Shown here: positions 4,238 to 29,962 of the stretch, in pieces
Position numbering within the stretch: the first letter of the stretch is position 1
Layout of the letters: each line of letters begins with the position of its first letter
IMG/VR virus record: IMGVR_UViG_3300042484_001802
DNA: 64,000 nt
Source of the DNA: a virus
Direction: 5' to 3' (one strand)
The notes under the pieces: model-generated
Databases searched by the model: none
What the model was told of the DNA's origin: nothing
What the model saw: only the letters and a program-made list of their open reading frames with translations
Position numbers and translations under genes: made by a program

Positions 4238-4690
4238 ATGGCAACATCCTATGGTATAGATTTCCCATTTAGGGATAGTATGGTCGGTGACTTTGTTAGA
4301 ATGACAAAAACCCCCGAGCAAGAGATTAGAGCGAACCTAATACACCTTATATTAACAAAGAGGGGTACTAGATATTTTTTACCAGATTTTGGTACTAGAA
4401 TTTATGAATATATTTTTGACCAAAATGATGTTATCACCTTTAACCATATTGAAGACGAAATAAGAGAATCGGTAAAAAAATACATTCCAAATTTAGATAT
4501 AAATTCAATAAAGGTTGTTAACGCTGAAAATGATCCAGATGAACAGGTTAGTGTTAGTGAAGATGAAGATAGTCGATTATTTAGAACATCTGATTCATCA
4601 AACAAACCTTATACAGCAAAAGTAAGAATTGATTATACAGTAAATAATGGGGCATTTGGTTCAAGTGATTTTATAATTATTAACATATAA
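4238..4690 (+). CDS. Baseplate wedge subunit, gp25/GPW-like
   Basis: GIDFPF, NLIHLILTKRGTRYFLPDFGT pattern and size typical of gp25 family; precedes a J/gp6-like gene. Confidence 0.9.
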   Translation: MATSYGIDFPFRDSMVGDFVRMTKTPEQEIRANLIHLILTKRGTRYFLPDFGTRIYEYIFDQNDVITFNHIEDEIRESVKKYIPNLDINSIKVVNAENDPDEQVSVSEDEDSRLFRTSDSSNKPYTAKVRIDYTVNNGAFGSSDFIIINI

Positions 4691-4691
4691 G

Positions 4692-6521
4692 ATGAGTAAA
4701 AAAATATCGTACACGAATAGAGATTTCGCGGGAATTAGAGAAGAGTTAGTTAATTTAACAAAAGATTACTATCCCGAATTAATTAAAAATACAAATGACG
4801 CATCAATATTTTCGGTGTCATTGGATTTAAATGCCGCTGTTGCGGATAACTTACATTACCATATAGATAGGGTTTGGCAAGAAACTATGCTGGACTTTGC
4901 TCAACAAAAACAATCATTATTTCATATAGCAAAAACATACGGAATTAGGGTTCCAGGTCAAAGACCGGCCGTTTCATTATGTGATTTTAGTATTAATGTA
5001 CCAGTTAGAGGTGATAAGGATGATGAAAGATACGAAGGTATCTTAAGAGCTGGCGCTCAAGTGTCTGGGGGTGGTCAAATATTTGAAACAATTTCTGATA
5101 TTGATTTTTCTAACCCATTTAATGACAGAGGAGAACCAAACAGATTAAAAATACCAAATTCTGATGCCAATAATAAATTGATTTCATATACGATTACAAA
5201 AAGAGAAGCTGTTGTTAATGGTGTTACTAAAATTTTTAGAAGAGCAATCACGCAAAGAGACCAAAAACCATTCTTAAAACTCTATTTACCTGAAAAAAAT
5301 GTTCTAGGAGTTACTTCAATTATACATAAAGAAGGAACGTCTTTCGGTGCTAATCCAAATGCTTCTGAATTTATTAGTTCAACTAATAAATGGTATGAGG
5401 TTAAAACACTAATACAAGATAAAGTATTCATTAAAGACCCTACAAGCACTTCTGACAAAAAGAATTTTGTTGCAGGTACAAATGTTAAGGTTTCAAATAA
5501 ATTTATTACAGAATACACACCAGAAGGTTATTTCTCATTAACATTTGGTTCAGGTAATGTTGATCCGTTAGATAATTTGGACAACTATATTACAAGTAAT
5601 TTAAAGGTTAACCTAGGAACATATCTAAATAATATGTCAATGGGTACAATTCCTAAAGCAAACACAACCTTATTTGTAAAATATAGGATTGGTGGTGGTA
5701 AGGAAAGTAATCTAGGGGTTGGTGTTTTAACAACGGTAGAAAATGTTGATTTTGTGATGACGGGTCCTTTAAGTTCTATAAATAACCAAGTATCTCAATC
5801 ATTACAAGTTACAAACGTAACACCGGCTGTCGGTGGGGCGGATCAACCAACTGTTGAAGAATTAAGAAATATGGTTGCATATAATTTTGCGGCACAAAAC
5901 AGAGCAGTTACCCTTAATGACTATAAATCATTGATTGAAAATATGCCATCAACATTCGGGGCTCCGGCCAAAGTTAATGTTATGGAAGAAAACAACAGAG
6001 TGAGAATTAAGTTATTATCATATGATGAGAATGGTAACTTAAGTGATACCGTTTCTAACACCCTAAAAAACAATATTTTAAATTACTTGTCGGAATATAG
6101 AATGATTAACGACTATTTGGATATTGTTAGTGGTGAGGTTATTGATATGGGTTTAGAAATCGATTTGGTGGTTGATAAAAACCAAAACCAAGCGGATTTA
6201 TTAAGAGAAGCAATTACTAAAATAACAGCTTATTTCTCAATCGACAAACGTAAGATGGGAGACCCGTTATTTGTGGGTGATTTGCAAAAAGAAATCAACG
6301 ATATTTCTGGTATTGTTAACGTGGTTAGTATTAGAGTTTTTAACAAAATTGGTGGAGAATATTCAACAGCGCAGGTTGCTCAAGAGTCAAATCCTGTAAC
6401 AAAAGAAATTGTACAATCTGATTCAACCATATATATGAAAGCAAATCAGATATTTCAAATCAGATTTCCAAATAAAGATATTAAAATAAGAGTTAAAACC
6501 TTAGGTTCCACTACATACTAA
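4692..6521 (+). CDS. Baseplate wedge subunit, T4 gp6 / baseplate J-like
   Basis: YTNRDFAGIREEL N-terminus, LTFGSG, YRIGGG, GGAD..QNRAVTLNDY motifs. Confidence 0.9.
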   Translation: MSKKISYTNRDFAGIREELVNLTKDYYPELIKNTNDASIFSVSLDLNAAVADNLHYHIDRVWQETMLDFAQQKQSLFHIAKTYGIRVPGQRPAVSLCDFSINVPVRGDKDDERYEGILRAGAQVSGGGQIFETISDIDFSNPFNDRGEPNRLKIPNSDANNKLISYTITKREAVVNGVTKIFRRAITQRDQKPFLKLYLPEKNVLGVTSIIHKEGTSFGANPNASEFISSTNKWYEVKTLIQDKVFIKDPTSTSDKKNFVAGTNVKVSNKFITEYTPEGYFSLTFGSGNVDPLDNLDNYITSNLKVNLGTYLNNMSMGTIPKANTTLFVKYRIGGGKESNLGVGVLTTVENVDFVMTGPLSSINNQVSQSLQVTNVTPAVGGADQPTVEELRNMVAYNFAAQNRAVTLNDYKSLIENMPSTFGAPAKVNVMEENNRVRIKLLSYDENGNLSDTVSNTLKNNILNYLSEYRMINDYLDIVSGEVIDMGLEIDLVVDKNQNQADLLREAITKITAYFSIDKRKMGDPLFVGDLQKEINDISGIVNVVSIRVFNKIGGEYSTAQVAQESNPVTKEIVQSDSTIYMKANQIFQIRFPNKDIKIRVKTLGSTTY

Positions 6522-12972: not shown

Positions 12973-13887
12973 ATGAATAAAAATCAATTTCAAATATTAC
13001 AAAATACCGGAAAAACGTTCAATGTACCAATATTTTTAGAGGCAGATTTGGATGAGATGGGGGTAATGGTGGAATTTGATGGTGAATTAGAACAAATAGA
13101 ACAGCTATGTAATTTTACTTATTCAGGAAATGGTAATGCGATTACAGTTTATAATACCGGAAGTACAAATAGGTTAAAAAAACTTGTTGAAGCCGAATTT
13201 ACAGTTGATTGGGGTGACGGTGCATTGTTAACCGGATTTACATTACTATCAAATACATCACACACATATACTAGTAGCGGTGAAAAAACAATAACAATAA
13301 CAATGGATAGCCCCTGGGGTGTTCAAGAGGTTGAAAAAACAATACAGGTACCTTTGGTTAGTGGGTATACCGGCACAAATGCATTAGGAACACTAACGTT
13401 TGATGTGCCATATACAAGCATTACTGGAGTTACACAAGATTACTTGAACGATTATGATTATGCTACCGGACATACGGGTACCACCACTTTCTTAGGAGTT
13501 GGTACTAGTAGAGTAGACGAATTAAAATTATATGGTTCAGGAAATTCGTACAGTGGAATTACAACCGGAACAACAACAGTTGAAGGTGAAACATACGCAT
13601 ATACAGGATACACATTAGATGGATTACAATATAAAGATTTATCTGATGGTTCTACATATATTTCTGGGAACACGGCGTCATTTCAAATAGAATCAACAAT
13701 AAACGCAATGTTAACCAGAAATGAACATTTTTTAGGGTTTATTGATGATCCTGTGATATATTCTGACATTTTTGTTGAAAGAGGAAAGCAGGGTGTTTGT
13801 GAATATAACTTAAGATTAGGTGAAGTTGACAGTTTAGGTGAGTTAGAAGTGTATGGAAATGGATTTTTTACAGTAAGAAAACAATAA
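12973..13887 (+). CDS. Structural protein with PKD-like domain
   Basis: VDWGDG....SHTYTSSGEKTITIT matches the PKD signature. Confidence 0.65.
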   Translation: MNKNQFQILQNTGKTFNVPIFLEADLDEMGVMVEFDGELEQIEQLCNFTYSGNGNAITVYNTGSTNRLKKLVEAEFTVDWGDGALLTGFTLLSNTSHTYTSSGEKTITITMDSPWGVQEVEKTIQVPLVSGYTGTNALGTLTFDVPYTSITGVTQDYLNDYDYATGHTGTTTFLGVGTSRVDELKLYGSGNSYSGITTGTTTVEGETYAYTGYTLDGLQYKDLSDGSTYISGNTASFQIESTINAMLTRNEHFLGFIDDPVIYSDIFVERGKQGVCEYNLRLGEVDSLGELEVYGNGFFTVRKQ

Positions 13888-13911: not shown

Positions 13912-14817
13912 ATGGCAGTAGGATCATACGGAATAGTTAGACCAGCAGACGCATCACCAGAAGATGTTGAAATCATCTACCATTATGCGGCGACAAGGTC
14001 GACAGATTCCGCCCCAATTTTGAAAAAATTATCTGCAACAGATATTTTAACTCCAGTATATCATAATGATAGTACGGGTGCTTCAAATGGTGTTGAAGTT
14101 TTAGGTGGTATGTACAATCTAAAATTAGAATCGTCAGATTTCACAGATATTGGAATATATACATTACATATTAGACCTAAACAAATTAGAACATTAATAG
14201 CTGATTGTGGGGTTTTAGCGTCATTACCATCAGTTAGAGGTATTATTGTAGATTTAGGTAATATTGAAACAGAGGATAGAAACAAGTTCACACCTCAAGG
14301 TCTAATTGGTCACAGAATTGAATATCTAGATGCTAATCATAAAAAAGTTCCTAATTTTTACCGAATAGTGACTTCTTCATTTTATTGTGAGCCAATCACA
14401 TCTAATTTAACAAACTCGTCACAAAAAGCGATTCGTTATAGATATACTGATTCTGCTAGTAATTTAATGTTTTTGACGGTGACACCATCATCGTCTCCAG
14501 CAAACAGACCGAATACAATACCTTTTATTGGTCAGCCAAACCAAGAAATAATCATTACAAATACATACTTTAACCCAACAACAATTGAGGTTGAAATGGT
14601 TGAACATGATGCATCGACATTAGCACTTGCTCTTTATGGTAATCAAACTAAAGCAATTAATAGTGGTATATACAGCATATACAATAAAGAAAATTATATA
14701 TACAAACAATTTAATCTTTACGAAGTTAAAGACGAATTTAATGAAACATTATATGAAGTTCGTGAAGAGAGAACAACTATTGATGAATCTTTAAACTTTA
14801 ATGATATTACAGAATAA
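13912..14817 (+). CDS. Putative structural protein
   Basis: 301 aa, TATTTAT at 13894, coupled to the next gene. Confidence 0.5.
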
Positions 14818-17800
14818 TGGCAAAATATAAGGTACCAAGTCAAGCAACGAGCGGAAATCAAACATTTTCCGACAGTATTATCGGTAGTCAAATTACCGAT
14901 GGAACTAGTCAATTGACCAATACCAATTTTGCTTTAGATAAAATCATACCAGAAAAAGATTCAAAATCGTTTAAAACTGCGCCGTTTTCAGATTTTTTAA
15001 CATTAGAAGATTTAAAAATTGAAACAGAATCACCAACAACTGTTACACAGTCGACAGGTGAAAAAAGACCAATCAAATTTAACGATTCTAAAGCAGATGC
15101 CGGAAAATCATTATATGGTTCATTAAGAGAAAGATTTAGAGTTTCAACAGCTAGGATTATTAATAATTTCCCAGCAGCACTTTTAGCAGATAGTACATCA
15201 CCTGTTGGTGTTAACAAAAACACCGCTGAAAATATTGTTTACAATATAATCACAAATAGAACTACGTTTACATTACAAACATCATTAATGTATAATCCAT
15301 TAGATGTTGTTTTAGTTGAACCGACAGTTGTTGTTACTGGAGAAACAACAAATAGTATAAGAAATTTATATTCAGCATATAAAAAATATGCCGTTGATGT
15401 TAACAACACAACTTATACTGTAACAAAATATACGGAGCCAGATGTTAATAATGTTGTTGGGTTCGAAGTTATTGGTAAGCCATTTACTGGTTCAACATAT
15501 ACAAGTTCATATTTAATTCGCCCAAATAACGGCGTTGTCGAAGAGTTTTATATAGGGTTAGACGATTTAGAACAAACAATTTTAAATAGAGAAACACTAC
15601 CAATATATAAGACAACGTTTCAAATACCTAGAGATACTTCCGGCGGAACAAAAACCGAAATTATTCCAGTTGAAGTTAATTGGCCAGTATCTAAAGACGG
15701 TTGGAATATTAGAATTGTTGGTTTAGAATACCAAAACTATATTGACACTGTTAACTCAATTGCGATTGAGGTAGATGAGTACAAATCTGATTTAATAATT
15801 AGATTTCTATCATCACCACAATTATTTGAATTTGATACAGATGACCAAAAAACCAATAAAATTTTCCAATTATATGGTCAAAATTTTGATAAGGTTAAAA
15901 AATATATTGACAACATTGCATACATGCGTAATGTTAGTTATGATACCATCAATAACATACCAGATGTATTCTTAAAAAACTTAGCAAACACGTTAGGTTT
16001 TAATACAATTAATATGTTTGATGAGAAAACATTACAAGATCAAATATATAACGCTTCAATTCAAACATACGACGGGGTTTCAATAGGTAAAAACTTAGTT
16101 GAAGCAGAACTTGAATTTTATAGAAGAATTGTTGTTAACCTAGCACATATCTATAAATCTAAAGGTACTAGAAGTAGTTTAGATTTCTTTTTAAGGTTTA
16201 TAGGTGCACCACCACAAATGGTAAAAATTGATGAGTTCGTTTATAACGTTGAATCAAGTTTACCTAGTTCAACAATTGAGCAAGATATCTTTGATGTTAT
16301 GCAAGGCAACAAAGTCAATAAAACGTTAACCTTTAACACTACTGGTTACACATATGACATTGTTGAAGAAACGGCATCAACATCATTTAGTTCTAGAACC
16401 GATTTCCCTGTTGATGAAAATACTGGGTTACCAATATCACCAACAACAAATGATGAGAACGTGTTCTTTCAAATGGGTTCTGGTTGGTATGAGGAAACAT
16501 TAGACCACAGATCATATGATGTTTTAGATGAAGCTAATTCAATTACAACGGGTAGAACTAAAACATTAAAAACCAAATCTAGAGAATTCACATATGGTGA
16601 GGACTTCTACAATTATTATAGAACATTACCAGGATTAGATTACGGTTATGAATTAAGAAGTAGTATTGATAATGTTAAAGGACAAATAGTCGACGATTTA
16701 GATGCAACTAATTTAATATTAAATAGAAAAAATATAAACGTTTTCGTATCATCTTCAAAAGCAATTGATTATGATATTTGGAGAAAATCACAAAACTTAA
16801 CATTATCTTTTGGCACACTAGATGTTCAAACCGAGATTAGTTTTGCTGAGTATCTTGATAACGTATTAAAAAATCATATTAGAAATTCTCATGTAATAAA
16901 ATACAAAAAGAATTACATCGCATTAGAAGAAATCTATCGTGAATACATTTCACATTCTGGTTTTACATCATACGATTTTGTTAGTGTTTACGAATTTGTT
17001 GACAAGATGGGTCCTTATTGGCCTAACATCTTAAATCAAATTATTCCAGCAACAACTTTATGGCTAGGTGGTAACTTAACAGAGAATAATGTTTTCGGTA
17101 GACCAAAATATCAATACGTTAAACCATGTACACCAACAGAGTTTGTTGATAATTTATATCCTGAATTTGAAACAGCTATTGAAGAGGATTTAGAAACTTT
17201 AATCGGTACTGAATCAAATTTAAGAGGTTTATTAAAACTTACGGGGGTAACATACCATTTAATTGTTGACGTTGACGGGGTAGAATATACTGGAGACACT
17301 AAAGTTAATTTAACCGGTACCACACTATTTGATCAATTCACACCAAAAACTGGTTGCACTTCATTTGTGTCTGGAACATCTTATGCTCCACTTATTTGTG
17401 ACTTTAAAGAATGGATTGGTTTAGATATTTCGACCATAAAAGTTTCTTGGAAAAATGCTTTATCAGATTTAATTGACCAGATTAATACAACACACACAAG
17501 AGATAGTGCAGGATGTATAACTGATTATATACCATATAGTGCAATTACATCAGGAGCAACATGTAATGTTGATTTACCAATATTATCTCATGAGTTTTTT
17601 GTTGACACTGACGGTATTGAAAAAGTTAAATTCTTTTCACAAAAAAACGCTGATGGTGTTTGTACAAAACAAATTGATTTCTTCTTCTCTTCAGAATTTT
17701 TATATGAAGAGCCACTATGCATGCAAGTTTATGTTTCAACACCTTGCGACATATATGAAGAAGGTACCGAAGATTGTCGACTTAAAAGTGATGTTTACAT

Positions 17801-20800
17801 TACAATTAGCGGAGCCACTAGAAATCAAGACGATGTAACTTCTTGGCCGGTTAACATATTTTATGATTGCGGAGAAAATGCTGAGAATTTCAACGAGAAT
17901 ATTAGTGGTTTAGAAATTCAACAAATTATTGGTGAGCCATGTATGTTTATCATACCAGACGTTTACGAAGATGGGGATATTGATGGTAATCCAATTGAAT
18001 TATTATTTACAGACGCAGCAAACTGCGAACAAAAAATAAAAATTGAAGGTCTACAACTTAAAGTAGAGCACGATCCATATCCACTAGGATATGGTAGATC
18101 ACATACACAATTCTTTGAGTTAATTGGTACAAAAGACGCTTTAGTTTTATCAACAATGTCAGGTGTTACTTTTTGTGACAACTACACTGGTTATACAATA
18201 CAACCTAAAGTTCAATATCGTGAAACATTTAATTATGGTATTAAGCACGGGTCAATTGTTTTAAAAGCAACCGGTAGCACTGTAAACGTATCAACTAAAG
18301 CGATTGTTGATGCTGCGATTACTTCTGGTGCTTTAATTGAAACAACAATTGAAAACGTAAACATTGGTGATTATATATTATCCGCAGATTTTAATCCATG
18401 CCCATTTGCCACAACAGATTTTAGAAACGCAGCAACAAATGGATACTCATTTAGCTTTACATATAAACTAATTCAAATAACAAATAAAGATTGTTTGGGT
18501 TCGGTTAAGAAACATTTAATTAACAACCAATTTGAAGTTTTACCAACAACAGAATTAAGAATTTTGCGTGATGGTAATTTCACAAGTGCGTTTCCAGAAG
18601 ATTTATTATTAAAAGAAACACCACCAGAAGAACCTTGTTGTGATGTTAATACATCATATTATGACGGATTCGCTGGAGATATGTTATTGGACCAGCTTGG
18701 TTTCCCAATTGAAGTTGAAACTGTTGAATTGGATTATTGCTCAAGAAGCATATTCTATCACTTGAACTGGAACGGTACAGGTGATGTGGTTCTTTTTAAT
18801 GGTGACAATAACAAACAAATCTTATTATCATTCACACAAAATAAATTTGTTTCATTAAACTTTGATTTAGAACAATTATATGTAAATGGTTCTAACACAA
18901 ACTATTTCCCTAGAGAAATGGGTGTTGAGGATTGTGATAACACACCAGTTGTTGAATGTGGTGAAGTATATGTTGCACAAACAAGAACACCTACACCTAC
19001 ACCTACATTAACACCTACGGTAACACCAACAAAGACGCCAACAAGTACACCAACAAGTACGCCTACTCAAACTTTAACTAGCACACCAACTAGTACACCA
19101 ACACAAACTGTAACTAGTACACCAACTAATACGCCTACGTTAACGTTAACGTCTACACCAACGTTTACACCTACTTTAACACCAACTTTAACACCAACAA
19201 ATACACCAACGTTAACTTTAACAGCTACACAAACACCTACGGCAACAATTGATTGTGACTTTAGCATTCAATACGTTGTTAATACTCCAACACCTACACC
19301 AACACAAACCTTAACAACAACACCAACAAATACACCAACGTTAACTTTAACAGCCACACAAACACCTACGGCAACAATTGAGTGTGATTTTAGTATTCAA
19401 TATGTTGTAAATACTCCAACACCAACACCTACATCAACACAAACATTAACACCAACTAACACACCTACGTTAACACTAACGTCAACTCCAACTAATACCC
19501 CAACATTAACACCAACAGCAACTGTTGATTGTGATTTCTCAATTCAATATGTTGTTAACACACCTACGCCTACACCAACTCAAACTTTAACTCAAACTCC
19601 GACGTTAACTGAAACACCTACGAATACCCCAACATTAACGTTGACGAGTACACCTACAGAGACACCAACTCAAACACCTACGTTAACGCCTACGGCAACA
19701 ATTGAGTGTGATTTTAGTATTCAATATGTTGTAAATACTCCAACACCAACACCTACACAAACCTTAACAACAACACCTACACAAACCCCAACTAATACTC
19801 CAACGGCAACCGTTGATTGTAATTTTGATTTTGATGTAATTGTTAACACACCAACACCTACACCGACTAGCACCCCAACTAATACTCCAACGTTAACACC
19901 AACTGAAACACCAACTAGCACTCCGACCAATACTCCGACTTTAACACCGACAGAGACGCCTACATTAACACCGACAGAGACACCTACATTAACACCAACA
20001 CCGACTGTTGATTGTGATTTCGCAATTCAATATATTGTTAACACACCAACACCGACACCTACACCAACTTTAACTGAAACTCCAACAAATACACCTACGT
20101 TAACCCCAACGGCTACTGTAGATTGTGCTTTTGATTTCGATGTAATTGTTAACACACCAACACCTACACCGACTAGCACCCCAACTAATACTCCAACGTT
20201 AACGCCAACAGAGACACCGACTGAAACGCCAACTAACACACCAACGTTAACACCAACAGAGACACCAACACAGACACCTACTGAAACACCTACATTAACA
20301 CCTACACCGACTGTTGATTGTGACTTTAGTATACAATATATTGTTAATGACCCAACACCTACACCTACACCAACATTAACAGAAACACCGACTAATACAC
20401 CTACGTTAACGCCAACAGAGACACCTACTGAAACACCTACATTAACCCCAACTAATACACCTACAGTAACTGTTGATTGTACTTTTGATTTTAATGTAAT
20501 TGTTAATACCCCAACACCGACTCCAACATCTACACCAACTAATACACCTACGTTAACGCCAACAGAGACACCTACTGAAACACCAACCAATACCCCAACA
20601 TTAACACCTACTGAAACACCTACACAAACACCTACTGAAACACCTACATTAACACCAACAGCAACTGTTGATTGTGATTTCTCAATTCAATATGTTGTTA
20701 ACACACCTACGCCTACACCAACTCAAACTTTAACAACAACACCTACATTAACCCCAACTAACACACCAACAGCGACTGTTGATTGTAATTTTGATTTTGA

Positions 20801-21707
20801 TGTGATTGTTAATACCCCAACGCCTACACCAACACAAACTCCGACTAATACTCCAACATTAACACCAACAGAGACCCCGACTGAAACACCAACAAACACT
20901 CCAACATTAACACCAACTGAAACACCGACTGAAACACCAACTAATACTCCGACATTAACACCAACGGCAACTATTGATTGCGACTTTAGTATTCAATACG
21001 TTGTTAATACCGCAACACCTACACCTACACCTACACCAACATTAACACCAACAAACACACCAACACAAACATTAACAAGTACGCCTACACCAACTATTGA
21101 TTGTTTATTTGAGGCGTCATTTACCGAAACAGGCGCACCAGTTGGTGAACCAGTAACAGTAAACGCAATTTTCATTGACTTGTTAATGAATAACGCGGGG
21201 TACGATACTCATAATTTTAGATTATATCAATCAACTACTGGGGTTGCAGATTATGGTTCATATGTATCAATTTCAAACGTTGATTCAAATAGACATTTAC
21301 CAACAGAATCAACTTCAGCAACCACTTCTAATTTAATCGCTGGACAAAGTGAATCAATAAATGGTAGTACTAGATTTTATAGATTCGCAATCAATAGTGC
21401 TAAATTAAAGAGTGATTATGAAGGTGTAACAACATATACATTTGATTTATATGGAACTAGATTAACGGCAGTTGATGAAACTGTAACAGTTAAACGTTCA
21501 ATAAAATCTACTAACCTAATTGACACAGCACTTAATAACGGAGTAGATTTTAGCACATCATTATCTGAATCATATTTTACAAATGATAGTTCTAAAGTAT
21601 GCTCTGCGCAATTTACTTATGTAAAAATTGGATATTTCACATATAATGTAACAAATAACTCATTATCATATAATAATATAAGCGACACTAACTGTACACC
21701 TAGTTAA
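14817..21707 (+). CDS. Baseplate wedge protein (gp7/P2 gpI-like N-region) fused to a degenerate Hint domain and a long Thr-Pro repeat arm
   Basis: [15 protein letters not shown] and [19 protein letters not shown] resemble gpI/gp7 wedge motifs; Hint-like blocks at about aa 1141-1339; (T-x)n region from about aa 1390 to 2095. Confidence 0.7.
18981..21110 (+). repeat. Coding (Thr-X)n repeat with 12 conserved plus 1 degenerate single-Cys modules
   Basis: [DE]C[DNAT]F(S/A)IQY[VI]VN or DCxFDF[DN]VIVN modules separated by variable-length TPT/TLT/TET linkers. Confidence 0.95.
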
Positions 21708-21763
21708 AAAAAAGCATTATAATAAATAAAATGAAAAAAAATATACATAAAAAATAAAAATAA

Positions 21764-23194
21764 ATGGCAAGGTATTTTGATATAAAGATAACATCAGGAA
21801 CAGCTTCTGGACCTTACACAGTTTACTACAACAGTGTGAATCCGGTTACTATTGCCACGATAACATCATCAAGTCAACCTGCAACCGGGATGACGTATAC
21901 TAGTTTAATAACTGGTAATGGTGTAAATGTGTTTGTTCCAGATGGAGTAACATCTTTAATATTAAAAAATGAAAACGTTTCTTGTGTTACCGAAGATGTG
22001 TATATGTTACCAACAGCAACACCTACGTTAACACCTACACCTACATTAACTCCTACGAATACACCAACTCAAACACAAACCTTAACAGCTACAGAAACCC
22101 CGACTGAAACACCTACGAATACCCCAACATTAACTTTAACTAGTACACCTACTAATACCCCAACTATTGATTGTAATTTTGCAATTCAATACGTTGTTAA
22201 TACTGCAACACCAACACCAACTCCGACACCTACATTAACGCCTACGAATACACCTACATTAACGTTGACAAGTACACCTACGGAAACACCGACAAACACA
22301 CCTACAAACACACCTACATTAACCGCAACTAACACACCAACGTTAACACCAACATTAACACCTACGTTAACGCCTACGGAAACACCAACAAATACACCAA
22401 CATTAACTTTAACTAGTACGCCTACTAATACCCCAACTGTTGATTGTGACTTTAGCATTCAATATGTTGTTAACACACCAACACCAACTCCGACACCAAC
22501 ACAAACATCAACAAGTACACCTACATTAACCGCGACTAATACACCAACATTAACTGCAACAAGTACACCTACATTAACTGCAACTAATACACCTACGTTA
22601 ACATCAACACCTACAAACACACCAACACAAACATCAACAAACACACCTACATTAACCGCAACAAACACTCCAACACAAACATCAACAAGTACACCTACAT
22701 TAACAGCGACAAACACACCAACATTAACATCAACACCTACTAACACACCAACGTTAACCTTAACGTCAACACCAACACCTACACCAACAACAACAGCTTA
22801 TCTAGGTTATTACAATTGTGGATACGGTTGTGAATACTACTCAACACCACCAGTTGGATGTATTGAGTGTAATCCAAATGCAACAAATGTTGTAATTAGT
22901 GCTTGTGTAATGGCCGGTGGTAATAATAGTACAACGGTACAAGTAAATTCCGATGTTTCGGTGAACACAAATGTTACCGTTGATGTGAGAATAATTGGTG
23001 ATTTAGGTACTAATACCGCACATACTATAACAATACTTAATGGTTATTCTTGTGTTAGTACTGTAAATGGGCCAGCTTTACAAAATTATGAAATAATAAC
23101 TGATGCTTGGATTATGGATGTAAACCCAGCATCAAGTGGTTCACAAAACTACATAATTGGATTAGTCGCGTTTAATAGTTGTTTTGGTTGTTAA
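21764..23194 (+). CDS. Thr-Pro-rich accessory virion protein
   Basis: About 80-aa beta-rich N-domain (GPYTVYY), (T-x)n arm with two copies of the same DCxFxIQYVVN module, Cys-rich C-terminal head. Confidence 0.65.
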
Positions 23195-23240
23195 ACCTTT
23201 AGAATAATTTGAAATAATAGTATATTTATAATAGACAAAT

Positions 23241-24329
23241 ATGGCATACGTAACAATAACATTAGCGGCTGGATCTTCCACAAATAGTGGGCCTTTTGAT
23301 ATAATTGGCACACCTGGGAACACTTTATTATTTTCAACTCAATCGTATAACGACCTATCAACTGGTCAAGTATATGATATTGATATGGGGATATATACTG
23401 GTATTACTTTAACTAGTTCAGGTACTTGTAATAATAGTGTTGGACCATATACATTTGATAGTGGACCTGTTTGCTTGTGTGATGAGGGATATACGGTGAC
23501 AAATGATGGTTTAGGTTGTTATAAAGTAACAATAACAAGTGCAACGTCAGTAGACACAAAACAACCAGGAACTGGCGCCGCTAACGGTGCTTATGGCGAT
23601 TTTGGTGTTTTGATATATAATGTTAGTGATTTCAATTTAAATGGTAGTTCAACTAGTGGTAATTACGCATATAACGGTAGTTATTTTGGAACTAACGCTA
23701 GTATGACAGTTAGTGAATTATTCTGGGCTAATAGAATGAATTATAACGGAGTTTGGGTTAGTGGAAACCCAAATTATATTGGTACACTTAGTTTTTGTAC
23801 AACAATAAATGTTGCAACAACCAAGGTTTATTATATAGGTATTGCTGGTGATAATGAAATTATGATTAAAGTTAATGGAACAACAATAGTAGACCAACCA
23901 GCAGGTGGAACGACAGTTGGCGGATCTACAACTCCGACAAACAACTTTAAATATTGGCACGTTTATCCATATGTATTAAACGCCGGACCAAATATTGTTG
24001 AATTATCAAACTATAATGCTGGTTCTGTTGGAGATTACGCAGCGGAAATATATGACAACACATTGGCACAATTAACTGGAGCAACTTCAGCAAGTAGTTT
24101 AAATATTATATTCTCAACTGGTGATTATTTACCAGCTAGGGCGATATCTGGTGTAACAACATCTGCTTCGGCGGGCTCCGTTCAATTTATTGAAAACGTA
24201 GGCGCTGGTTCAAAATACGGACAAGGTTTCTGTACTAATTATAGTTGCGCAAGTGGATATGTTTTAGATACATCTGATCCAGAAACACCAACTTGTAAAT
24301 TAATAGAATACGCAGTGTGTATTTCATAA
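23241..24329 (+). CDS. Accessory virion protein with PA14-like core flanked by EGF-like Cys motifs
   Basis: YYIGIAGDNEIMIKVNGTTIVD...LNAGPNIVEL is PA14/GLEYA-like; CLCDEGYTVTNDGLGC and CASGYVLDTSDPETPTC are EGF-like. Confidence 0.55.
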   Translation: MAYVTITLAAGSSTNSGPFDIIGTPGNTLLFSTQSYNDLSTGQVYDIDMGIYTGITLTSSGTCNNSVGPYTFDSGPVCLCDEGYTVTNDGLGCYKVTITSATSVDTKQPGTGAANGAYGDFGVLIYNVSDFNLNGSSTSGNYAYNGSYFGTNASMTVSELFWANRMNYNGVWVSGNPNYIGTLSFCTTINVATTKVYYIGIAGDNEIMIKVNGTTIVDQPAGGTTVGGSTTPTNNFKYWHVYPYVLNAGPNIVELSNYNAGSVGDYAAEIYDNTLAQLTGATSASSLNIIFSTGDYLPARAISGVTTSASAGSVQFIENVGAGSKYGQGFCTNYSCASGYVLDTSDPETPTCKLIEYAVCIS

Positions 24330-24358
24330 CATAAAACATAAAATATAAAATATAAAAC

Positions 24359-24877
24359 ATGGACATAACAATTAGTTTTTCAACAACACCATCATTATCT
24401 GTGGGACCTTTTACGGTTACCGTTAGAGATGGTAGTAATACCGCAACACAAACATTTTCAAATGTTACTAGAGCAACAATATTAAGTGGATATTTGATTC
24501 AAAATATAACTTCTTTAGACGAATCTATTAGAGTAGAAAGTTCTGGAACTTGTAGCACATTAGATACAGTGGACATTAGTTCGGTAACTGGTGGTGGTGG
24601 TGGCGGCGGTGGCGGCGAACACACATCAAATAGCGTATTCTATTATGGTACATCAAGTGTAAATGCTTGTAACGTAGGAACCGCATTACCTGTAACAGTA
24701 TTCTACGACGGTCTTTTAAGTGCATTAATGTCAGGAGATTATTTATATGAAGACCAAACTGGCACACCATTAAGTTCGGGTTACTATTTCAACGATGGTT
24801 TAACATTTGGATTATTTAATGTTGCGGCAGGAGGCATGATTTCAACAATAAGTGATTGTAGCGGTAGTACCCCATAA
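24359..24877 (+). CDS. Two-domain accessory virion protein with poly-Gly hinge
   Basis: GPFTVTV...SSGTC N-domain, Gly9 linker, small C-domain with two Cys. Confidence 0.55.
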   Translation: MDITISFSTTPSLSVGPFTVTVRDGSNTATQTFSNVTRATILSGYLIQNITSLDESIRVESSGTCSTLDTVDISSVTGGGGGGGGGEHTSNSVFYYGTSSVNACNVGTALPVTVFYDGLLSALMSGDYLYEDQTGTPLSSGYYFNDGLTFGLFNVAAGGMISTISDCSGSTP

Positions 24878-24898
24878 TCTTTTGACTTATAACTGATT

Positions 24899-24926
24899 AA
24901 AACCCCTTTATTTTAAGGGGTTTTTT
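24899..24926 (+). terminator. Intrinsic terminator (possibly bidirectional)
   Basis: AAAACCCCTT / AAGGGGTTTT stem with T tail. Confidence 0.85.
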
Positions 24927-24959
24927 ATTTAAATTATATGTAAAGGTATTTATACTATT

Positions 24960-26120
24960 ATGGGTGTTTCAATAAGATTAATTAATATTAGTGGGTCAAC
25001 ATCGTATAGCGTGGCGTATTCAACCTCGCCATACGGTTCATTTACAACAGCTCTTACAGGTACGACATCCACAGCAACAATTAGTGGTGCCCCATTTGAA
25101 TTCGACACGCAATATTATATTAAACTGACAGATTTGGTTACAAATAGATATATTATTGAAAATATATATATTCACGATAGTAAAGCACATCCATTCTATG
25201 ACACAATAGATTTTGATTTAAGTGCTTCATGTGTTCCTCCACCGGTAACGCCAACAGCAACACCTACTTTAACCTTAACAAGCACACCTACACAAACATT
25301 AACCGCTAGCATTGGTTTAACATCAACACCGACACCTACTTTAACATTAACTAAAACACCTACACAAACACCAACACCGACAACTAGTTTGGCTGAACCA
25401 TTGCCAGGTTGTGGTGATACATTAACAGGAACGTATATACCAACAGGTTTTACGATTCAAACACAAGCATTAGATTTATCTGAAGCTACTGATGAATCAA
25501 TAATAAGCGTTGGATACGTTGCGTACGATAGACCAAATAGATTTAATATTTACGGAAATGGAATGTTAATTGAAAATAGTGGATGGGTTGGTGCTGATAA
25601 TACGTATGCGGGTCCTTGGGGAACGGCTGGAAGTTTAGCTGACCCTGACGGTACCGGTTCATTTACATTTACATATCAAAGTGGAATGTCCTATGAATTA
25701 CGTGTTGATGTGGGTCCATCGAATCCACTTGCAGACCCACCAAACCCTTCAGACGGATGGTCGGTAACATTTACTTGTTTAGGATCACCAACACCAACTC
25801 CGACACCGACACTGACAGCATCACTTGGTCAATGTTACACATATCGTGTTGCACAAGCTGCGCCTGTTAGCACATCAGAATATGGTATAAGATACAGATA
25901 TCCTGGATCACTTTCAACTGACAATCGCCTCGATACTTTGGATCCAGGGATAGCAACAATTGAGGGTGTTGATTATTTCACATATTCAATATGTAGTTCG
26001 GAGGAACCAACATGGCTTATAATGACAACATCTACTTCGGGAACTGGTGGAGCGGTACCTAACGGTGTTTATAGATTCGGGCCATTAGGAGGATGTAGTG
26101 GTAATGTAGAATGTATATAA
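24960..26120 (+). CDS. Thr-Pro-linker multi-domain accessory virion protein
   Basis: Three small Cys-bounded beta domains joined by TPTPT linkers; TATTTAT at 24947. Confidence 0.55.
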   Translation: MGVSIRLINISGSTSYSVAYSTSPYGSFTTALTGTTSTATISGAPFEFDTQYYIKLTDLVTNRYIIENIYIHDSKAHPFYDTIDFDLSASCVPPPVTPTATPTLTLTSTPTQTLTASIGLTSTPTPTLTLTKTPTQTPTPTTSLAEPLPGCGDTLTGTYIPTGFTIQTQALDLSEATDESIISVGYVAYDRPNRFNIYGNGMLIENSGWVGADNTYAGPWGTAGSLADPDGTGSFTFTYQSGMSYELRVDVGPSNPLADPPNPSDGWSVTFTCLGSPTPTPTPTLTASLGQCYTYRVAQAAPVSTSEYGIRYRYPGSLSTDNRLDTLDPGIATIEGVDYFTYSICSSEEPTWLIMTTSTSGTGGAVPNGVYRFGPLGGCSGNVECI

Positions 26121-26132
26121 TATTTATTAATA

Positions 26133-26423
26133 ATGGCAACATATAATATAACAATATCGAATATAAGCGGAAGCACAACACCGTGTAGTGTTTATAACAT
26201 TTATACCGGAACTACTTGGGAAACAATACCAACAACACCGCTTTTTTCTGATGTTGCCATACCATTAAATGGAAAAACATTTCAAATAATATATTCTGGC
26301 GCATCAAAATATGTTTGTGTTTTTGTTGAACATTGTGATGACCATATAACATCAGTACCAAATGCAACGCCTAAAAAACAGGGGGGATATCAAATAAGAT
26401 TAGTGGAATTAATTCCATGTTAA
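26133..26423 (+). CDS. Small Cys-containing accessory protein (stand-alone N-domain type)
   Basis: 96 aa, MATYNITISNISGST N-terminus like that of 24960; TATTTAT at 26121. Confidence 0.5.
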   Translation: MATYNITISNISGSTTPCSVYNIYTGTTWETIPTTPLFSDVAIPLNGKTFQIIYSGASKYVCVFVEHCDDHITSVPNATPKKQGGYQIRLVELIPC

Positions 26424-26433
26424 AGATAAATAA

Positions 26434-27828
26434 ATGGCTAAAGGAGTAACAATAAATTTTACAATAGATTCGGATCATTCACAATCAAATTTTCCTCAGT
26501 ATGTTTATACTGGTTTAACTGCTGATAATGTGACTGGAACTACAATATGTAATGGGATAACCGCTAGCAGTTGTACTTTAACAGGTTTAAGTGACACTTT
26601 AACACAAGTTTATGTAAAAATTAATTGTAATGGTTGTGACGACCAAATATTTTTGGTTTCACTAATAGAACCTATAGCAACAAACACGCCGACGCCAACT
26701 TTAACAGCAACACCTACAAACACACCAACACCTACAAATACACAAACACCTACAAATACAACAACCGAAGGTGCGACTCCAACGGCCACGCCAACATTAA
26801 CGCTAACAACTACACCGACAAATACTCCAACGTTAACCTTAACATCAACCCCTACCCCTACATCAACAACAGTAACATGTGTACCTAAAGAATATAATAT
26901 AACCGCTGCAGGTAATTTCTATTGGACTGATTGTGAAGGAAATGAGAGATATGATTATTTTACAACCGGAGATAGTCCAATATGTATCTGTAGTTCAAGT
27001 AATTTACCAATATCGTTAGATGGTGGAACAGGAACATTAGCGGGCGGTGGATGTGAATGTAATCCAGCAACTTCAACCCCAACCCCAACAGCAACACCTA
27101 CTCTTACCCCTACGCAAATGGCGGGACAATGTTATAGTTTTTCTATACCATCAACATATAATACAAGTGGTTATGGTTTAAGAATTCAAATACCTGGTCA
27201 ACCAGTACAAGATATACCATTTAACGGATTATTCGCGGAACAAGGACCTGGTCCAAGTTTTAACGCAATTTATTATGTATGTAGTGCTAGTATACCAGAG
27301 TATGTTAATATATCAACTGGTGTAGGTACAACAACGCCAGAAGAAATATTAACAACAGGACCAGATGGTTCATGTTCAAGTTATGTTGATTGTTTTGGTT
27401 CAACACAAACACCAACCCCAACACAAACATTAACAGCAACACCGACATTAACACCTAGTGCGGGCGGGGCACCGGGATCAGCATGTATTTCAATAACAGA
27501 ATATTCTTCACAAAGTACCACTGAATGTTTATCTAATACTGTACCATATTTCTATACCGTTATTACAGCATTATTAACTGATGGTAATGGTAATGCAATG
27601 AATGCTGTTGGTGATGTATATGCCTATGTTAATGTTACGGTAAATGTCCTTTACGAGCAGGAAAATACATATGAATATCCAATTGAAATAAGTAGTGGAA
27701 CAAGTTCGGGCACGCTTACCATTGATACATCAGTACCTGTAGATAATGGACAAGCTAATTGTGAAAATGAAACAAGAGTAATAAATTCTTATAGTGCACA
27801 AGTCGGATATAGTATATGCGCACCTTAA
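26434..27828 (+). CDS. Thr-Pro-linker, Cys-rich multi-domain accessory virion protein
   Basis: Four small Cys-rich domains separated by (T-x)n linkers; the GQCY...YGLR..PG domain is paralogous to the last domain of 24960. Confidence 0.55.
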   Translation: MAKGVTINFTIDSDHSQSNFPQYVYTGLTADNVTGTTICNGITASSCTLTGLSDTLTQVYVKINCNGCDDQIFLVSLIEPIATNTPTPTLTATPTNTPTPTNTQTPTNTTTEGATPTATPTLTLTTTPTNTPTLTLTSTPTPTSTTVTCVPKEYNITAAGNFYWTDCEGNERYDYFTTGDSPICICSSSNLPISLDGGTGTLAGGGCECNPATSTPTPTATPTLTPTQMAGQCYSFSIPSTYNTSGYGLRIQIPGQPVQDIPFNGLFAEQGPGPSFNAIYYVCSASIPEYVNISTGVGTTTPEEILTTGPDGSCSSYVDCFGSTQTPTPTQTLTATPTLTPSAGGAPGSACISITEYSSQSTTECLSNTVPYFYTVITALLTDGNGNAMNAVGDVYAYVNVTVNVLYEQENTYEYPIEISSGTSSGTLTIDTSVPVDNGQANCENETRVINSYSAQVGYSICAP

Positions 27829-27859: not shown

Positions 27860-29962
27860 ATGAGCTTTTTAAACAGTAATAATTCAGAATTTTTAACAGC
27901 AAGAATTACCCAAAAAGGTAGAAAATCTATCGCTGAGGGTAATTTTGTAATAAGTTATTTCCAAATAGGTGATTCTGAATTTGATTACAACTTCACAGGA
28001 TTCACTGGGAATGGCGTAACACCACATCAAAAAGTGTTGGCGCCAATGGATAAAGATGCTCAAGTAAAGTATCCATATAAATTAACATCATCTGAAAGTT
28101 TAACATACGGTAACCCAATAAAACAAAATACGTTAGATACAATTAAAAATGTTATGGGACCGGCAGGTTTCGTTTCAGATTACGTTGAATATGATTCAGT
28201 GGATTGTACTGGAACAACAATTGCATGTGAGATACAAGAAATATCGTTATCACAAGTTGATGGTACTAATTTATTAACAGTTTTAACTGGTGCAACATAC
28301 AATGGTTGTGAATATGTTACAATTCTTTTTAACAGTAGAACCTGTGGTGAGATACCAACATTAACTGGCGAAACAAATAGTTTGGTTTATAAAATTACAG
28401 GTATAACAGGTAATGAGTTAGCGTTTGATAGAATTATGCCAAACTTCTCATCATTAAGTGGTTATGCGCAAGTGATATGTCATAATTGTGATGTTGAATT
28501 TGGGTCTGATACTACAACAACAACTGTTTGTTCACCATCACCTGTAGATCCATCAGCAGCACATGATCCGTGGAGAATGGAAATCGTTTGGACAGAAAAA
28601 CCAGCAGGATTAAATGCATCAAATGAAAGTTTAACAGGATATACTGGAACACAATACGCATCAACAAAAGAATATTTAGGGTATAATAGCACATCAGGTC
28701 AAACATTTACAAATTTTACTGGAGGAACACTATCAACACCAACAACATTTGTTAATTCATTTGGTGAAGAAGTTAATGTTAAACCAGAAGACCAAAGAGT
28801 AATAGCAATATTACATTACTCAGAATTAGGTGATTCAGTTAACGACCCTGAAAGATTTTTTAAATACGATGATTACATCGCATCTGAAACTGAAGATGAT
28901 ATTTTAAGTTTCGAAGTGTACATTCCGTTTATGTTATATCATAGAAATACTGGTACCACTATTGGTGCAGTGTTTACTATGGGCGAAACAAATTATTATG
29001 TAACATCAAGTAAGAACGATAAACCAAATACTAATAATGTTGTATTCAGATATCTTTTAGATGAACAAGGTTATAAAGTTGGTAAAGTTTTCACAGGTAA
29101 AAAGATAATAGTATTTGATGATCAAGAAATTATAGCGGCATTAGAATATAAATCAAACAGAAGATTCACACTACCATCACCAAGAGTTAGTGCGGTTCCG
29201 GTTGATTTACCATGTACTGTTGGAGATTTACCAATGATAACAAGTGGTGAAACAGCATACATTACATATGAATTAGAACTAACAGGAAATACAGCATTAA
29301 GTGGGATACATTGTAATTACTATAATAGTGTTACTGGTATATCTGTGAATGCATCAATTAAATTCAATACTGATGATTTCAAGTATATGAATAATAATAC
29401 CAATTTAGTTGGTAGCACCAGCGGATTTAGAGCAAATAAGTTTAAAGCATTAGTTCAAATAGTTTCAGGAAGTACACAACCAGAATCAGATTCTTGGACT
29501 GTAATAGATTTAACAGACCAAATACCTAACCACACAGTTGGTAATTTAATTGATCCCGATAATTTATGTGACTATCAGTTTGTTATTGGTCAAGATATGT
29601 TAGATGGTGGTTCTTTATATTCAATCGGAACAAATACGTCAACAACAGATAATTTAATTGGTTATCAACCAACATTGACTAGCGGTGATGCTACACTTCC
29701 ACAATTTGGTGATAGTCAACCATTTCCAGGTAGCGTTAAGTTAACTAGGGCGTCTGACTTAGAGGTTATGACGTTTATGATTAACTTACCGTCATCACAA
29801 TTCACACAAACTCAGAATCCTACGTATATTTCTGGTGCAACCAAAAGAATTACAGAGGTAGCATTACTAGATGCAAGTAAAAATGTGTTGGCGATGTCAA
29901 AAACAGCTAAACCAGTGATAAGGTCTGGAGTACAAGTTTTTGCACTAAAAATTGATTTTTAA
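27860..29962 (+). CDS. Tail-collar/fibre attachment-like baseplate protein
   Basis: ARITQKGRKSIA...FQIGD at the N-terminus and ITEVALLDASKNVLAMSK at the C-terminus resemble the two halves of the tail-collar fibre domain split by a large insertion. Confidence 0.55.
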   Translation: MSFLNSNNSEFLTARITQKGRKSIAEGNFVISYFQIGDSEFDYNFTGFTGNGVTPHQKVLAPMDKDAQVKYPYKLTSSESLTYGNPIKQNTLDTIKNVMGPAGFVSDYVEYDSVDCTGTTIACEIQEISLSQVDGTNLLTVLTGATYNGCEYVTILFNSRTCGEIPTLTGETNSLVYKITGITGNELAFDRIMPNFSSLSGYAQVICHNCDVEFGSDTTTTTVCSPSPVDPSAAHDPWRMEIVWTEKPAGLNASNESLTGYTGTQYASTKEYLGYNSTSGQTFTNFTGGTLSTPTTFVNSFGEEVNVKPEDQRVIAILHYSELGDSVNDPERFFKYDDYIASETEDDILSFEVYIPFMLYHRNTGTTIGAVFTMGETNYYVTSSKNDKPNTNNVVFRYLLDEQGYKVGKVFTGKKIIVFDDQEIIAALEYKSNRRFTLPSPRVSAVPVDLPCTVGDLPMITSGETAYITYELELTGNTALSGIHCNYYNSVTGISVNASIKFNTDDFKYMNNNTNLVGSTSGFRANKFKALVQIVSGSTQPESDSWTVIDLTDQIPNHTVGNLIDPDNLCDYQFVIGQDMLDGGSLYSIGTNTSTTDNLIGYQPTLTSGDATLPQFGDSQPFPGSVKLTRASDLEVMTFMINLPSSQFTQTQNPTYISGATKRITEVALLDASKNVLAMSKTAKPVIRSGVQVFALKIDF

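Follow-up and report, generated by a model that had tools for sequence, protein, structure and literature searches.

A candidate multi-adhesin cassette with threonine-proline stalks and single-cysteine strand modules in an uncultured freshwater jumbo phage

The DNA analyzed here, called the window, is a 64-kb (64,000-nucleotide) part of the viral IMG/VR record IMGVR_UViG_3300042484_001802, which comprises 90,962 bp (27% complete according to CheckV) and has related contigs of up to 310 to 335 kb. Its plus strand carries a gene for a giant protein of 2296 amino acids (aa) with a long threonine-proline (Thr-Pro) stalk, and six shorter genes, named here by their start positions (21764, 23241, 24359, 24960, 26133, and 26434), whose products begin with small N-terminal domains (N-domains). 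A preliminary description of this DNA had seen a similar N-domain in all six partners and had proposed, with cellulosomes as the analogy, that single-cysteine strands in the giant protein capture single-cysteine N-domains by strand complementation and disulfide formation. Our favored reading, to which we give a probability of roughly 0.6, is that an uncultured freshwater jumbo myovirus encodes its host-adhesion (receptor-binding) proteins here, in a hypervariable multi-adhesin cassette of N-terminal anchor domains, tethers, and swappable heads.

The giant protein consists of a globular body, a mucin-like stalk or arm built from diverged tandem repeats, and a C-terminal head (Table 1). The first ~800 aa of the body are present in every relative, including minimal versions of 807 to 821 aa (L037-L044); the body was matched on 44 viral contigs with 45 to 100% identity, and its alignment (A6) has a mean column identity of 64%. 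The giant protein had no Pfam, PHROG, or PDB sequence match; it is presumably part of the baseplate, a placement taken from the gene neighborhood only. In the stalk-coding DNA, Tandem Repeats Finder detected periods of 24 to 354 nucleotides (nt) with 70 to 87% match, and the C-rich ACN-CCN codons reverse the sign of the GC skew from 18 to 24 kb. The same codon repeats cast antisense open reading frames (ORFs) at 20027-20590 (-), 22186-22458 (-), and 22459-22746 (-), whose (G/V/N)V translations are shadows and which we do not count as genes.

The six downstream ORFs start where the preliminary description had placed them, and the motifs it listed were all found: the first three genes have GPYTV, GPFDI, and GPFTV, both 24960 and 26133 have NISGST, and the single cysteines stand in NVSC, SSGTC, and SSGTC. 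Its common pattern M-x-x-[VIF]-x-I-x-[ILF] fits loosely, with a register that shifts by one residue between genes. The Thr-Pro or Gly9 linkers described for most of the proteins occur in 21764, 24960, and 26434 (Thr-Pro) and in 24359 (Gly9) but not in 23241, and 26133 is indeed an N-domain alone, with nothing after the domain. For the heads, Pfam, PHROG, and PDB sequence searches returned nothing usable, and this analysis gave no evidence for the glycan binding that had been ascribed to them. Matches to PHROG 15511 are confined to the Thr-Pro tracts, with nothing usable elsewhere in the giant protein, the heads, or the 27860 gene.

Table 1. Positions of the cassette features in the window and of candidate stalk-modifying enzyme genes in related genomes
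Feature	Position	Strand	Description
gp25-like and gp6/Baseplate_J-like baseplate wedge genes	4238..6521	+	Pfam PF04965 (E 7e-12) and PF04865 (E 3e-6); PHROG baseplate wedge families; open the gene block
Giant protein	14817..21707	+	2296 aa (ORF and translation); conserved body, then strain-variable stalk and head
Globular body	14817..18968	+	aa 1-1384; contains Cys; conserved across relatives
Thr-Pro stalk	18969..21095	+	aa 1385-2093 (~700 aa); mucin-like, diverged tandem repeats
Single-Cys modules of the giant arm	19248..21131	+	twelve 12-aa modules plus terminal variant; pattern [IV][DE]C.F...VN; 36 nt each
Module starts	19248, 19377, 19524, 19701, 19812, 20007, 20118, 20313, 20472, 20667, 20778, 20973; terminal variant 21096-21131	+	
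C-terminal head	21132..21704	+	aa 2106-2296 (~190 aa); no PDB sequence match
A-type protein	21764..23194	+	N-domain 21764-22009 (one Cys, C74); Thr-Pro stalk 22004-22807; head with 8 Cys from ~22808
Modules of the A-type protein	22166-22201, 22439-22474	+	two, in the Thr-Pro stalk of 21764
B-type protein	23241..24329	+	N-domain ~75 aa (C63); no linker; head with 8 Cys
B1-type small protein	24359..24877	+	N-domain 24359-24589 (C65); Gly9 linker 24590-24616; small head with 2 Cys
C-type protein	24960..26120	+	N-domain ~92 aa; two Thr-Pro linkers; two head domains; 6 head Cys
D-type N-domain alone	26133..26423	+	96 aa; 4 Cys
E-type protein	26434..27828	+	N-domain ~82 aa (4 Cys); three Thr-Pro linkers; Cys-rich heads
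700-aa gene	27860..29962	+	no Thr-Pro tract; downstream edge of the variable cassette in all relatives
GT60 genes of relatives	G006:C1:70576-71463; G007:C1:15212-15970; G008:C1:100733-101590		near-complete genomes, 287-336 kb

Comparison with relatives shows which parts of the cassette are kept and which are exchanged. Five N-domain families, A to E, recur in the same order in more than 120 loci, combined with different linkers and heads, and the proteins differ widely in length within each family (A, 476 to 1659 aa; B, 172 to 955; C, 125 to 1063; D, 95 to 779; E, 108 to 1087). In the D family, for example, relatives have the same N-domain with different heads. Everything between the conserved giant body and the 27860 gene varies: the minimal relatives have the short giant protein followed directly by a homologue of the 27860 gene, and others combine single C, D, and E genes, or have a set of A, B1, C, and B3, or, like the window, contain every type. 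The heads in relatives include cadherin and SprB repeats (E 6e-54 and 4.5e-36), von Willebrand factor A (vWA) domains, BspA-type leucine-rich repeats, and various Cys-rich domains. These loci bear out the general logic of the preliminary description, conserved N-terminal domains with interchangeable heads on flexible stalks beside baseplate genes. Phage receptor-binding proteins typically show this division into a constant N-terminal end and an exchangeable distal end.

The exchange can be seen directly in a 98%-identical strain (L002), where a vWA domain replaces the head of the giant protein. L002 is 98.5% identical to the window up to 19351 and 93% identical from 22037. Window positions 20771-22037 and L002 positions 15916-17496 have been exchanged as a unit that contains the end of the arm, the giant-protein head, and the N-domain of the next gene, and both breakpoints lie within repeats that encode Thr-Pro tracts and modules. 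The strains also differ in their numbers of modules, with 9+1 in the arm of L002 versus 12+1 in the window and 4 versus 2 in the A-type protein.

Contrary to the earlier proposal, the six N-domains do not belong to one family. Pairwise Smith-Waterman comparison against shuffled sequences was significant for 23241/24359 only (z 5.1; other pairs, 0.6 to 3.0). When the N-termini of relatives from 126 loci were clustered into the five families and their profiles compared (15 to 54 unique members per family), we obtained two superfamilies and one orphan. Family A (21764; 19 to 23 unique members in relatives) is related to family B (23241 and 24359, which cluster together) with a probability of 97.5% (E 5.5e-12 over 80 columns) and family D (26133) to family E (26434) with a probability of 89.5% (E 2e-6). 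The probability for B and E is 31%, and family C (24960; 39 unique members) has no profile relation to any other family.

The A/B superfamily is large and has a distinctive cysteine. Three columns are invariant in its alignment of 35 sequences: Met1, a Gly, and the Cys before the last strand. Among 1.84 billion proteins the A/B profile found 2137 cluster representatives (602 with E ≤ 1e-10), and almost every one of these proteins has the domain at its very N-terminus, from residue 1 on. The Cys is kept in 150 of the 150 best matches, 119 of which have no other Cys in the first 90 residues, so the single Cys that had been noticed near the end of the first three N-domains is a constant feature of the A/B type. 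The A/B homologues found are named only "hypothetical protein," and those of B1 are metagenomic entries of the same name. In the AlphaFold2 prediction, the N-domain of 21764 (residues 1 to 82), with a predicted local distance difference test (pLDDT) score of ~90, has a short helix and six strands and ends in a strand of its own at residues 76 to 81; the model suggests a small autonomous beta-sandwich. With this model as the query, Foldseek retrieved no PDB or BFVD entry at E ≤ 0.001; the top viral entry (E 5e-3; TM 0.71 by target) is an uncharacterized 77-aa protein of Virus NIOZ-UU157, probably a member of the family.

The second conserved element is the single-Cys module of the stalks. The giant arm contains eight modules of type A and four of type B in the order A-A-A-A-B-A-B-A-B-A-B-A, followed by the terminal variant, and the hydrophobic residues of the modules alternate to give a C-F-I-Y-V face. 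Relatives with as little as 45% core identity still have the motif C-[DEN]-F-x-phi-x-phi-x-phi, in different codons; variants in their arms include CDFDIDVDV, CEFVIDTVAVIA, CDFTVxVTYIA, and CAFDFVCSVI. Each of these arms has 7 to 25 module copies, with further copies in the stalk of the A-type protein that follows, and the Cys is invariant in every module. In some relatives, other N-domain families have cis module types of their own (CxFDGxxVYG for B-type and C[ND]FSGGSA for C-type proteins). In the loci of the clade, a context-free pattern (C-x-F plus alternating hydrophobics) has no match in 150,192 residues of nonstructural (replication-side) proteins versus 127 matches in 191,521 residues of the structural region.

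The modules are under purifying selection, because the peptide is kept despite repeat identities of only 70 to 87% at the DNA level and because synonymous differences are in excess: between the type A copies of the window there are 140 synonymous and 82 nonsynonymous codon differences, including AGY/TCN serine switches. Within a genome, module peptides of the arm and of the A-type protein share 64% identity, compared with 29% between genomes. We considered recent gene conversion as the source of this match and did not see it; the DNA flanking arm and A-protein modules is only 64 to 73% identical, and therefore no recent conversion tract is present. These patterns argue that the modules are functional, selected peptide elements.

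Other origins of the modules were considered and set aside. They are not orphan first strands of the C-terminal head, since the window and L002 have an identical terminal variant with a different head after it. Nor is there much to support plain copies of the last N-domain strand (A-type terminal strands, median -10; true modules, +19; background, mean -21). Intramolecular pairing of modules two by two does not fit their number per protein, which is odd as often as even. In one relative (L061, from 800 onward) two modules stand back to back directly after the conserved body, with no Thr-Pro linker between them (IDCDFDIDVNILDCNFDIDVDVIF); this arrangement is hard to fit with the docking of one bulky domain per module. 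In another, an A-type protein (L051:1767-3656) has 12 modules with a regular period of 23 residues (a strand of ~12 aa and a linker of ~11 aa) before a vWA-like head.

Cysteine counts and gene co-occurrence bear on what the modules might bind. The window heads have even numbers of Cys (8, 8, 2, and 6 for 21764, 23241, 24359, and 24960); therefore, the heads could pair their cysteines internally and leave those of N-domain and modules spare. Among complete B-type proteins the total number of Cys is odd in 41/54. In those with a single-Cys N-domain, subtracting the N-domain Cys and the isolated linker Cys leaves an even remainder in 18/20 (p 4e-4). The A-type remainder shows the same tendency (13/19, not significant), and C, D, and E show no bias. 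The counts are suggestive of a spare reactive cysteine in the B-type proteins. Arrays of at least two modules co-occur with A/B genes in 21/23 locus types and are negatively associated with D/E genes; three apparent exceptions to the A/B co-occurrence had arrays once the whole arm was included. Every array examined directly precedes an A or B1 gene, and B1 orthologues (160 to 245 aa) are present in every module-array cassette examined.

How might such a cassette work? We hypothesize that the N-domains would anchor the proteins to the virion, with a separate attachment site on the particle for each type, next to a conserved giant protein encoded in the baseplate block whose own stalk and head vary between strains. 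The stalks, whether Thr-Pro or Gly, would then be tethers and the heads the host-contacting parts, and recombination within the stalk-coding repeats would swap heads and alter stalk length between strains. The one-Cys amphipathic modules would most likely be beta-strand nodes between chains, locked by disulfides. We tentatively suggest that their partners are same-type modules on neighboring chains; this is a possible arrangement rather than a probable one, and same-type strand pairing would explain the irregular spacing, the family-specific module types, and the matching within genomes. Several points weigh against the adhesin cassette and its strand nodes. No protein of the region matches a characterized tail-fiber, tailspike, or anchor family by sequence. 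The anchor role of the N-domains is drawn from their position and conservation pattern, and the A-type model matches generic sandwiches only (VIA-align, C2/FN3-like, best Z 5.8; Foldseek, E ≥ 0.4). Furthermore, the sequences behind the Cys-parity and co-occurrence counts are interrelated, and their p-values overstate independence.

Docking of the N-domains on the modules, as originally proposed for all six partners, fares differently for the two halves of the set. Many related phages have C, D, and E N-domains, usually one each, in the absence of modules (L016, L047-50, L062-74, L079-86, and L116); therefore, docking must be given up for 24960, 26133, and 26434. For 21764, 23241, and 24359 the evidence points both ways, and we regard docking as unlikely. 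The modules would in this case be docking strands added to the sheet of an A/B1-type N-domain, with a disulfide between the two invariant cysteines, that before the last N-domain strand and that in every module; many heads would be displayed along the arm, and 21764, as a protein with both parts, would make the assembly branch or polymerize. Such docking would agree with the one Cys left over in A/B proteins after the head cysteines pair, with the co-occurrence and position of the arrays, and with the module-like last N-domain strand of some A members (e.g., ENCLFDVVYSVPTPTP); of all A members, 22% score above the 99th percentile of background. In an AlphaFold2 run on residues 1 to 155 of 21764 (18 aligned relatives), the cis module was predicted as a strand at residues 140 to 146 with a pLDDT of ~75, which implies pairing with the N-domain, while the linker stayed below 50. 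With residues 1 to 245 (12 relatives), the N-domain was at ~80 and both modules were at 31 to 37, and therefore the predicted docking is not robust. Moreover, the N-domain is confidently predicted as a fold that already includes a terminal strand, and only 9/150 of the best family members have a cis module. In the sampled region of two relatives, A/B genes occur without modules: in G004, whose complete giant protein (1820 aa) precedes A, C, B, and B genes, and in G005, with B3 and A genes. A more elaborate form, in which A/B N-domains would capture donor strands by sheet augmentation and disulfide formation and the glycosylated Thr-Pro arm would become a covalent branching display tree with 21764-type branch points, seems to us distinctly unlikely.

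Two further explanations dispense with module pairing or turn the proteins around. The modules could be functionless by-products of slippage or unequal recombination in Thr-Pro-coding repeats that caught a domain edge. They do lie in an array of tandem DNA repeats (periods of 111 to 354 nt), a duplicated 306-nt two-module unit explains the A-B alternation, and the copy number differs between near-identical strains. However, the synonymous excess with serine switches at modest DNA repeat identity, the conservation of the motif in different codons in phages with 45 to 55% core identity, and the within-genome match of arm and A-protein modules without long identical DNA tracts make this highly improbable. 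In the other explanation the polarity is reversed, so that distal N-domains bind in the manner of carbohydrate-binding modules and the proteins are fixed to the virion by their C-terminal parts. A carbohydrate-binding module followed by a linker is an established architecture of glycoside hydrolases, whose layout the small beta-sandwich with its Pro/Thr linker resembles, and the fold search returned generic sandwiches only. We consider this reading improbable, given that the N-domains are conserved and syntenic and the C-terminal parts variable, that 26133 and its relatives of 95 to 112 aa are an N-domain alone, and that the heads of relatives are adhesin domains; in known phage fibers the conserved end is the attachment end (PMC6872550, PMC12692247).

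The favored adhesin cassette can be compared with several known systems. In cellulosomes, cohesin-dockerin pairing takes place on a scaffoldin. The region is like a scaffoldin by analogy only, with Pro/Thr-linked repeated sites on a long protein and partners that have a common end domain and varied functional domains. A Pfam scan of all seven proteins (E ≤ 0.1) found neither cohesin nor dockerin; the repeated element is a 12-residue strand here and a 140-aa domain in cellulosomes, and three of the six partner domains here occur without any such sites. The donor strand of chaperone-usher pili offers a second parallel, in that a short alternating-hydrophobic strand could add to a small beta-sandwich, and the best, nonsignificant Foldseek rows include the fimbrial subunits AggA and AggB. 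A chaperone-usher acceptor is an incomplete Ig fold that lacks its last strand and has an open groove, whereas the N-domain is confidently predicted with its own last strand; the strands here are internal and multiple instead of one N-terminal extension, and pilus assembly does without the disulfide lock proposed here.

The closest parallel in phages themselves is provided by branched complexes of several receptor-binding proteins, such as TSP1-4 of the Ackermannviridae phage CBA120, the RBP1 branching domain and RBP2 docking peptide of KP32-type Klebsiella phages, and the hyperbranched fibers of jumbo phage PhiKp24 (PMC8825819, PMC6872550, PMC13352976, PMC9700779). The earlier statement that nothing like this had been described in phages was therefore too strong, as the literature contains branched receptor-binding complexes that have a branching domain together with a conserved docking peptide (PMC13352976, PMC6872550, PMC8825819). 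As in those complexes, candidate receptor-binding genes stand in tandem by baseplate genes, short conserved N-terminal parts are combined with interchangeable distal parts, and one large protein could be the attachment platform. In contrast, Pfam, PHROG, and PDB sequence searches found no T4gp10-like, XD, or tailspike domain here, and the stalks are long Thr-Pro tracts instead of trimeric beta-helices. The short element also sits on the putative platform, in up to 25 copies, instead of at the N-terminus of a secondary protein. A literature search for Pro-Thr linkers in tail fibers found no paper.

The Thr-Pro stalks may be mucin-like, glycosylated tracts in which the modules would stand out as bare islands. 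GT60 polypeptide alpha-N-acetylglucosamine (GlcNAc) transferases modify mucin-type Thr/Pro repeat proteins in Dictyostelium and Trypanosoma cruzi. A PF11397/GT60 GlcNAc-transferase is encoded in 3/4 large relatives (E 2.5e-37 to 9.3e-61), together with 4 to 6 GT2 enzymes each, and PF11397 was present in 0/14 control prokaryotic genomes. The proteins of the window resemble GT60-modified mucin-type proteins in their long tracts with Thr at every second position; the giant protein has a Thr/Pro tandem tract of ~700 aa, and further tracts are found in 21764, 24960, and 26434. A search of the 90,962 bp available for this phage, rated as 27% complete, found neither PF11397/GT60 nor GT2.

The cluster shows how a large group of uncultured freshwater jumbo phages may diversify host attachment, by combining a few conserved N-terminal domains with heads that would recombine through low-complexity stalk-coding DNA. 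It also defines two previously unannotated elements, an N-terminal beta-sandwich family with an invariant, apparently unpaired Cys and more than 2000 sequence clusters, and a one-Cys strand motif of 10 to 12 residues that is maintained by selection inside Thr-Pro stalks. If the strands are covalent assembly points, they would represent a new way to build multivalent phage appendages and possibly a compact tag-and-catcher pair. Should the donor-strand display tree prove true, a pilus-like or cellulosome-like assembly principle would operate on a phage baseplate. Through the GT60 enzymes of relatives, phage-encoded glycosyltransferases may be tied to mucin-like virion proteins, a link that can be tested.

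On the plus strand, ribonucleotide reductase genes are followed by the gp25-like and gp6-like wedge genes, five unannotated genes, and the giant ORF; after the six downstream ORFs come the 27860 gene, a RuvC-like resolvase gene, and a primase gene. All genes from the wedge genes to 27828 form one co-oriented block, in which the candidate receptor-binding genes stand in tandem beside the baseplate genes. The nearest cultured relatives of the gp6-like wedge protein (4692-6521) are Flavobacterium phages (28% identity to vB_FspM_immuto), and it is also related to a protein of a 484-kb uncultured phage (LR756508). Together with the SprB and cadherin heads of relatives, this hints at a host among the Bacteroidota. 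Relatives of the 27860 gene were matched in 192 stretches, of which 80 loci were kept (44 to 77% identity; contigs of up to 335 kb). Pfam, PHROG, and PDB sequence searches with its product returned nothing usable, and GenBank phages contain no relative of the giant protein, the 27860 gene, or the A-type N-domain.

In the head of 23241 (23520-24329), the block FWANRMN...VW..GN...YYIGIAGDN is common to proteins of other cassettes (L054:385-2133 and L083:671-2521), and therefore this head type itself seems to be a mobile module. The 304-aa protein encoded upstream of the giant gene (12973-13887) has a sub-threshold match to a PKD domain (PF18911; E 7e-5).

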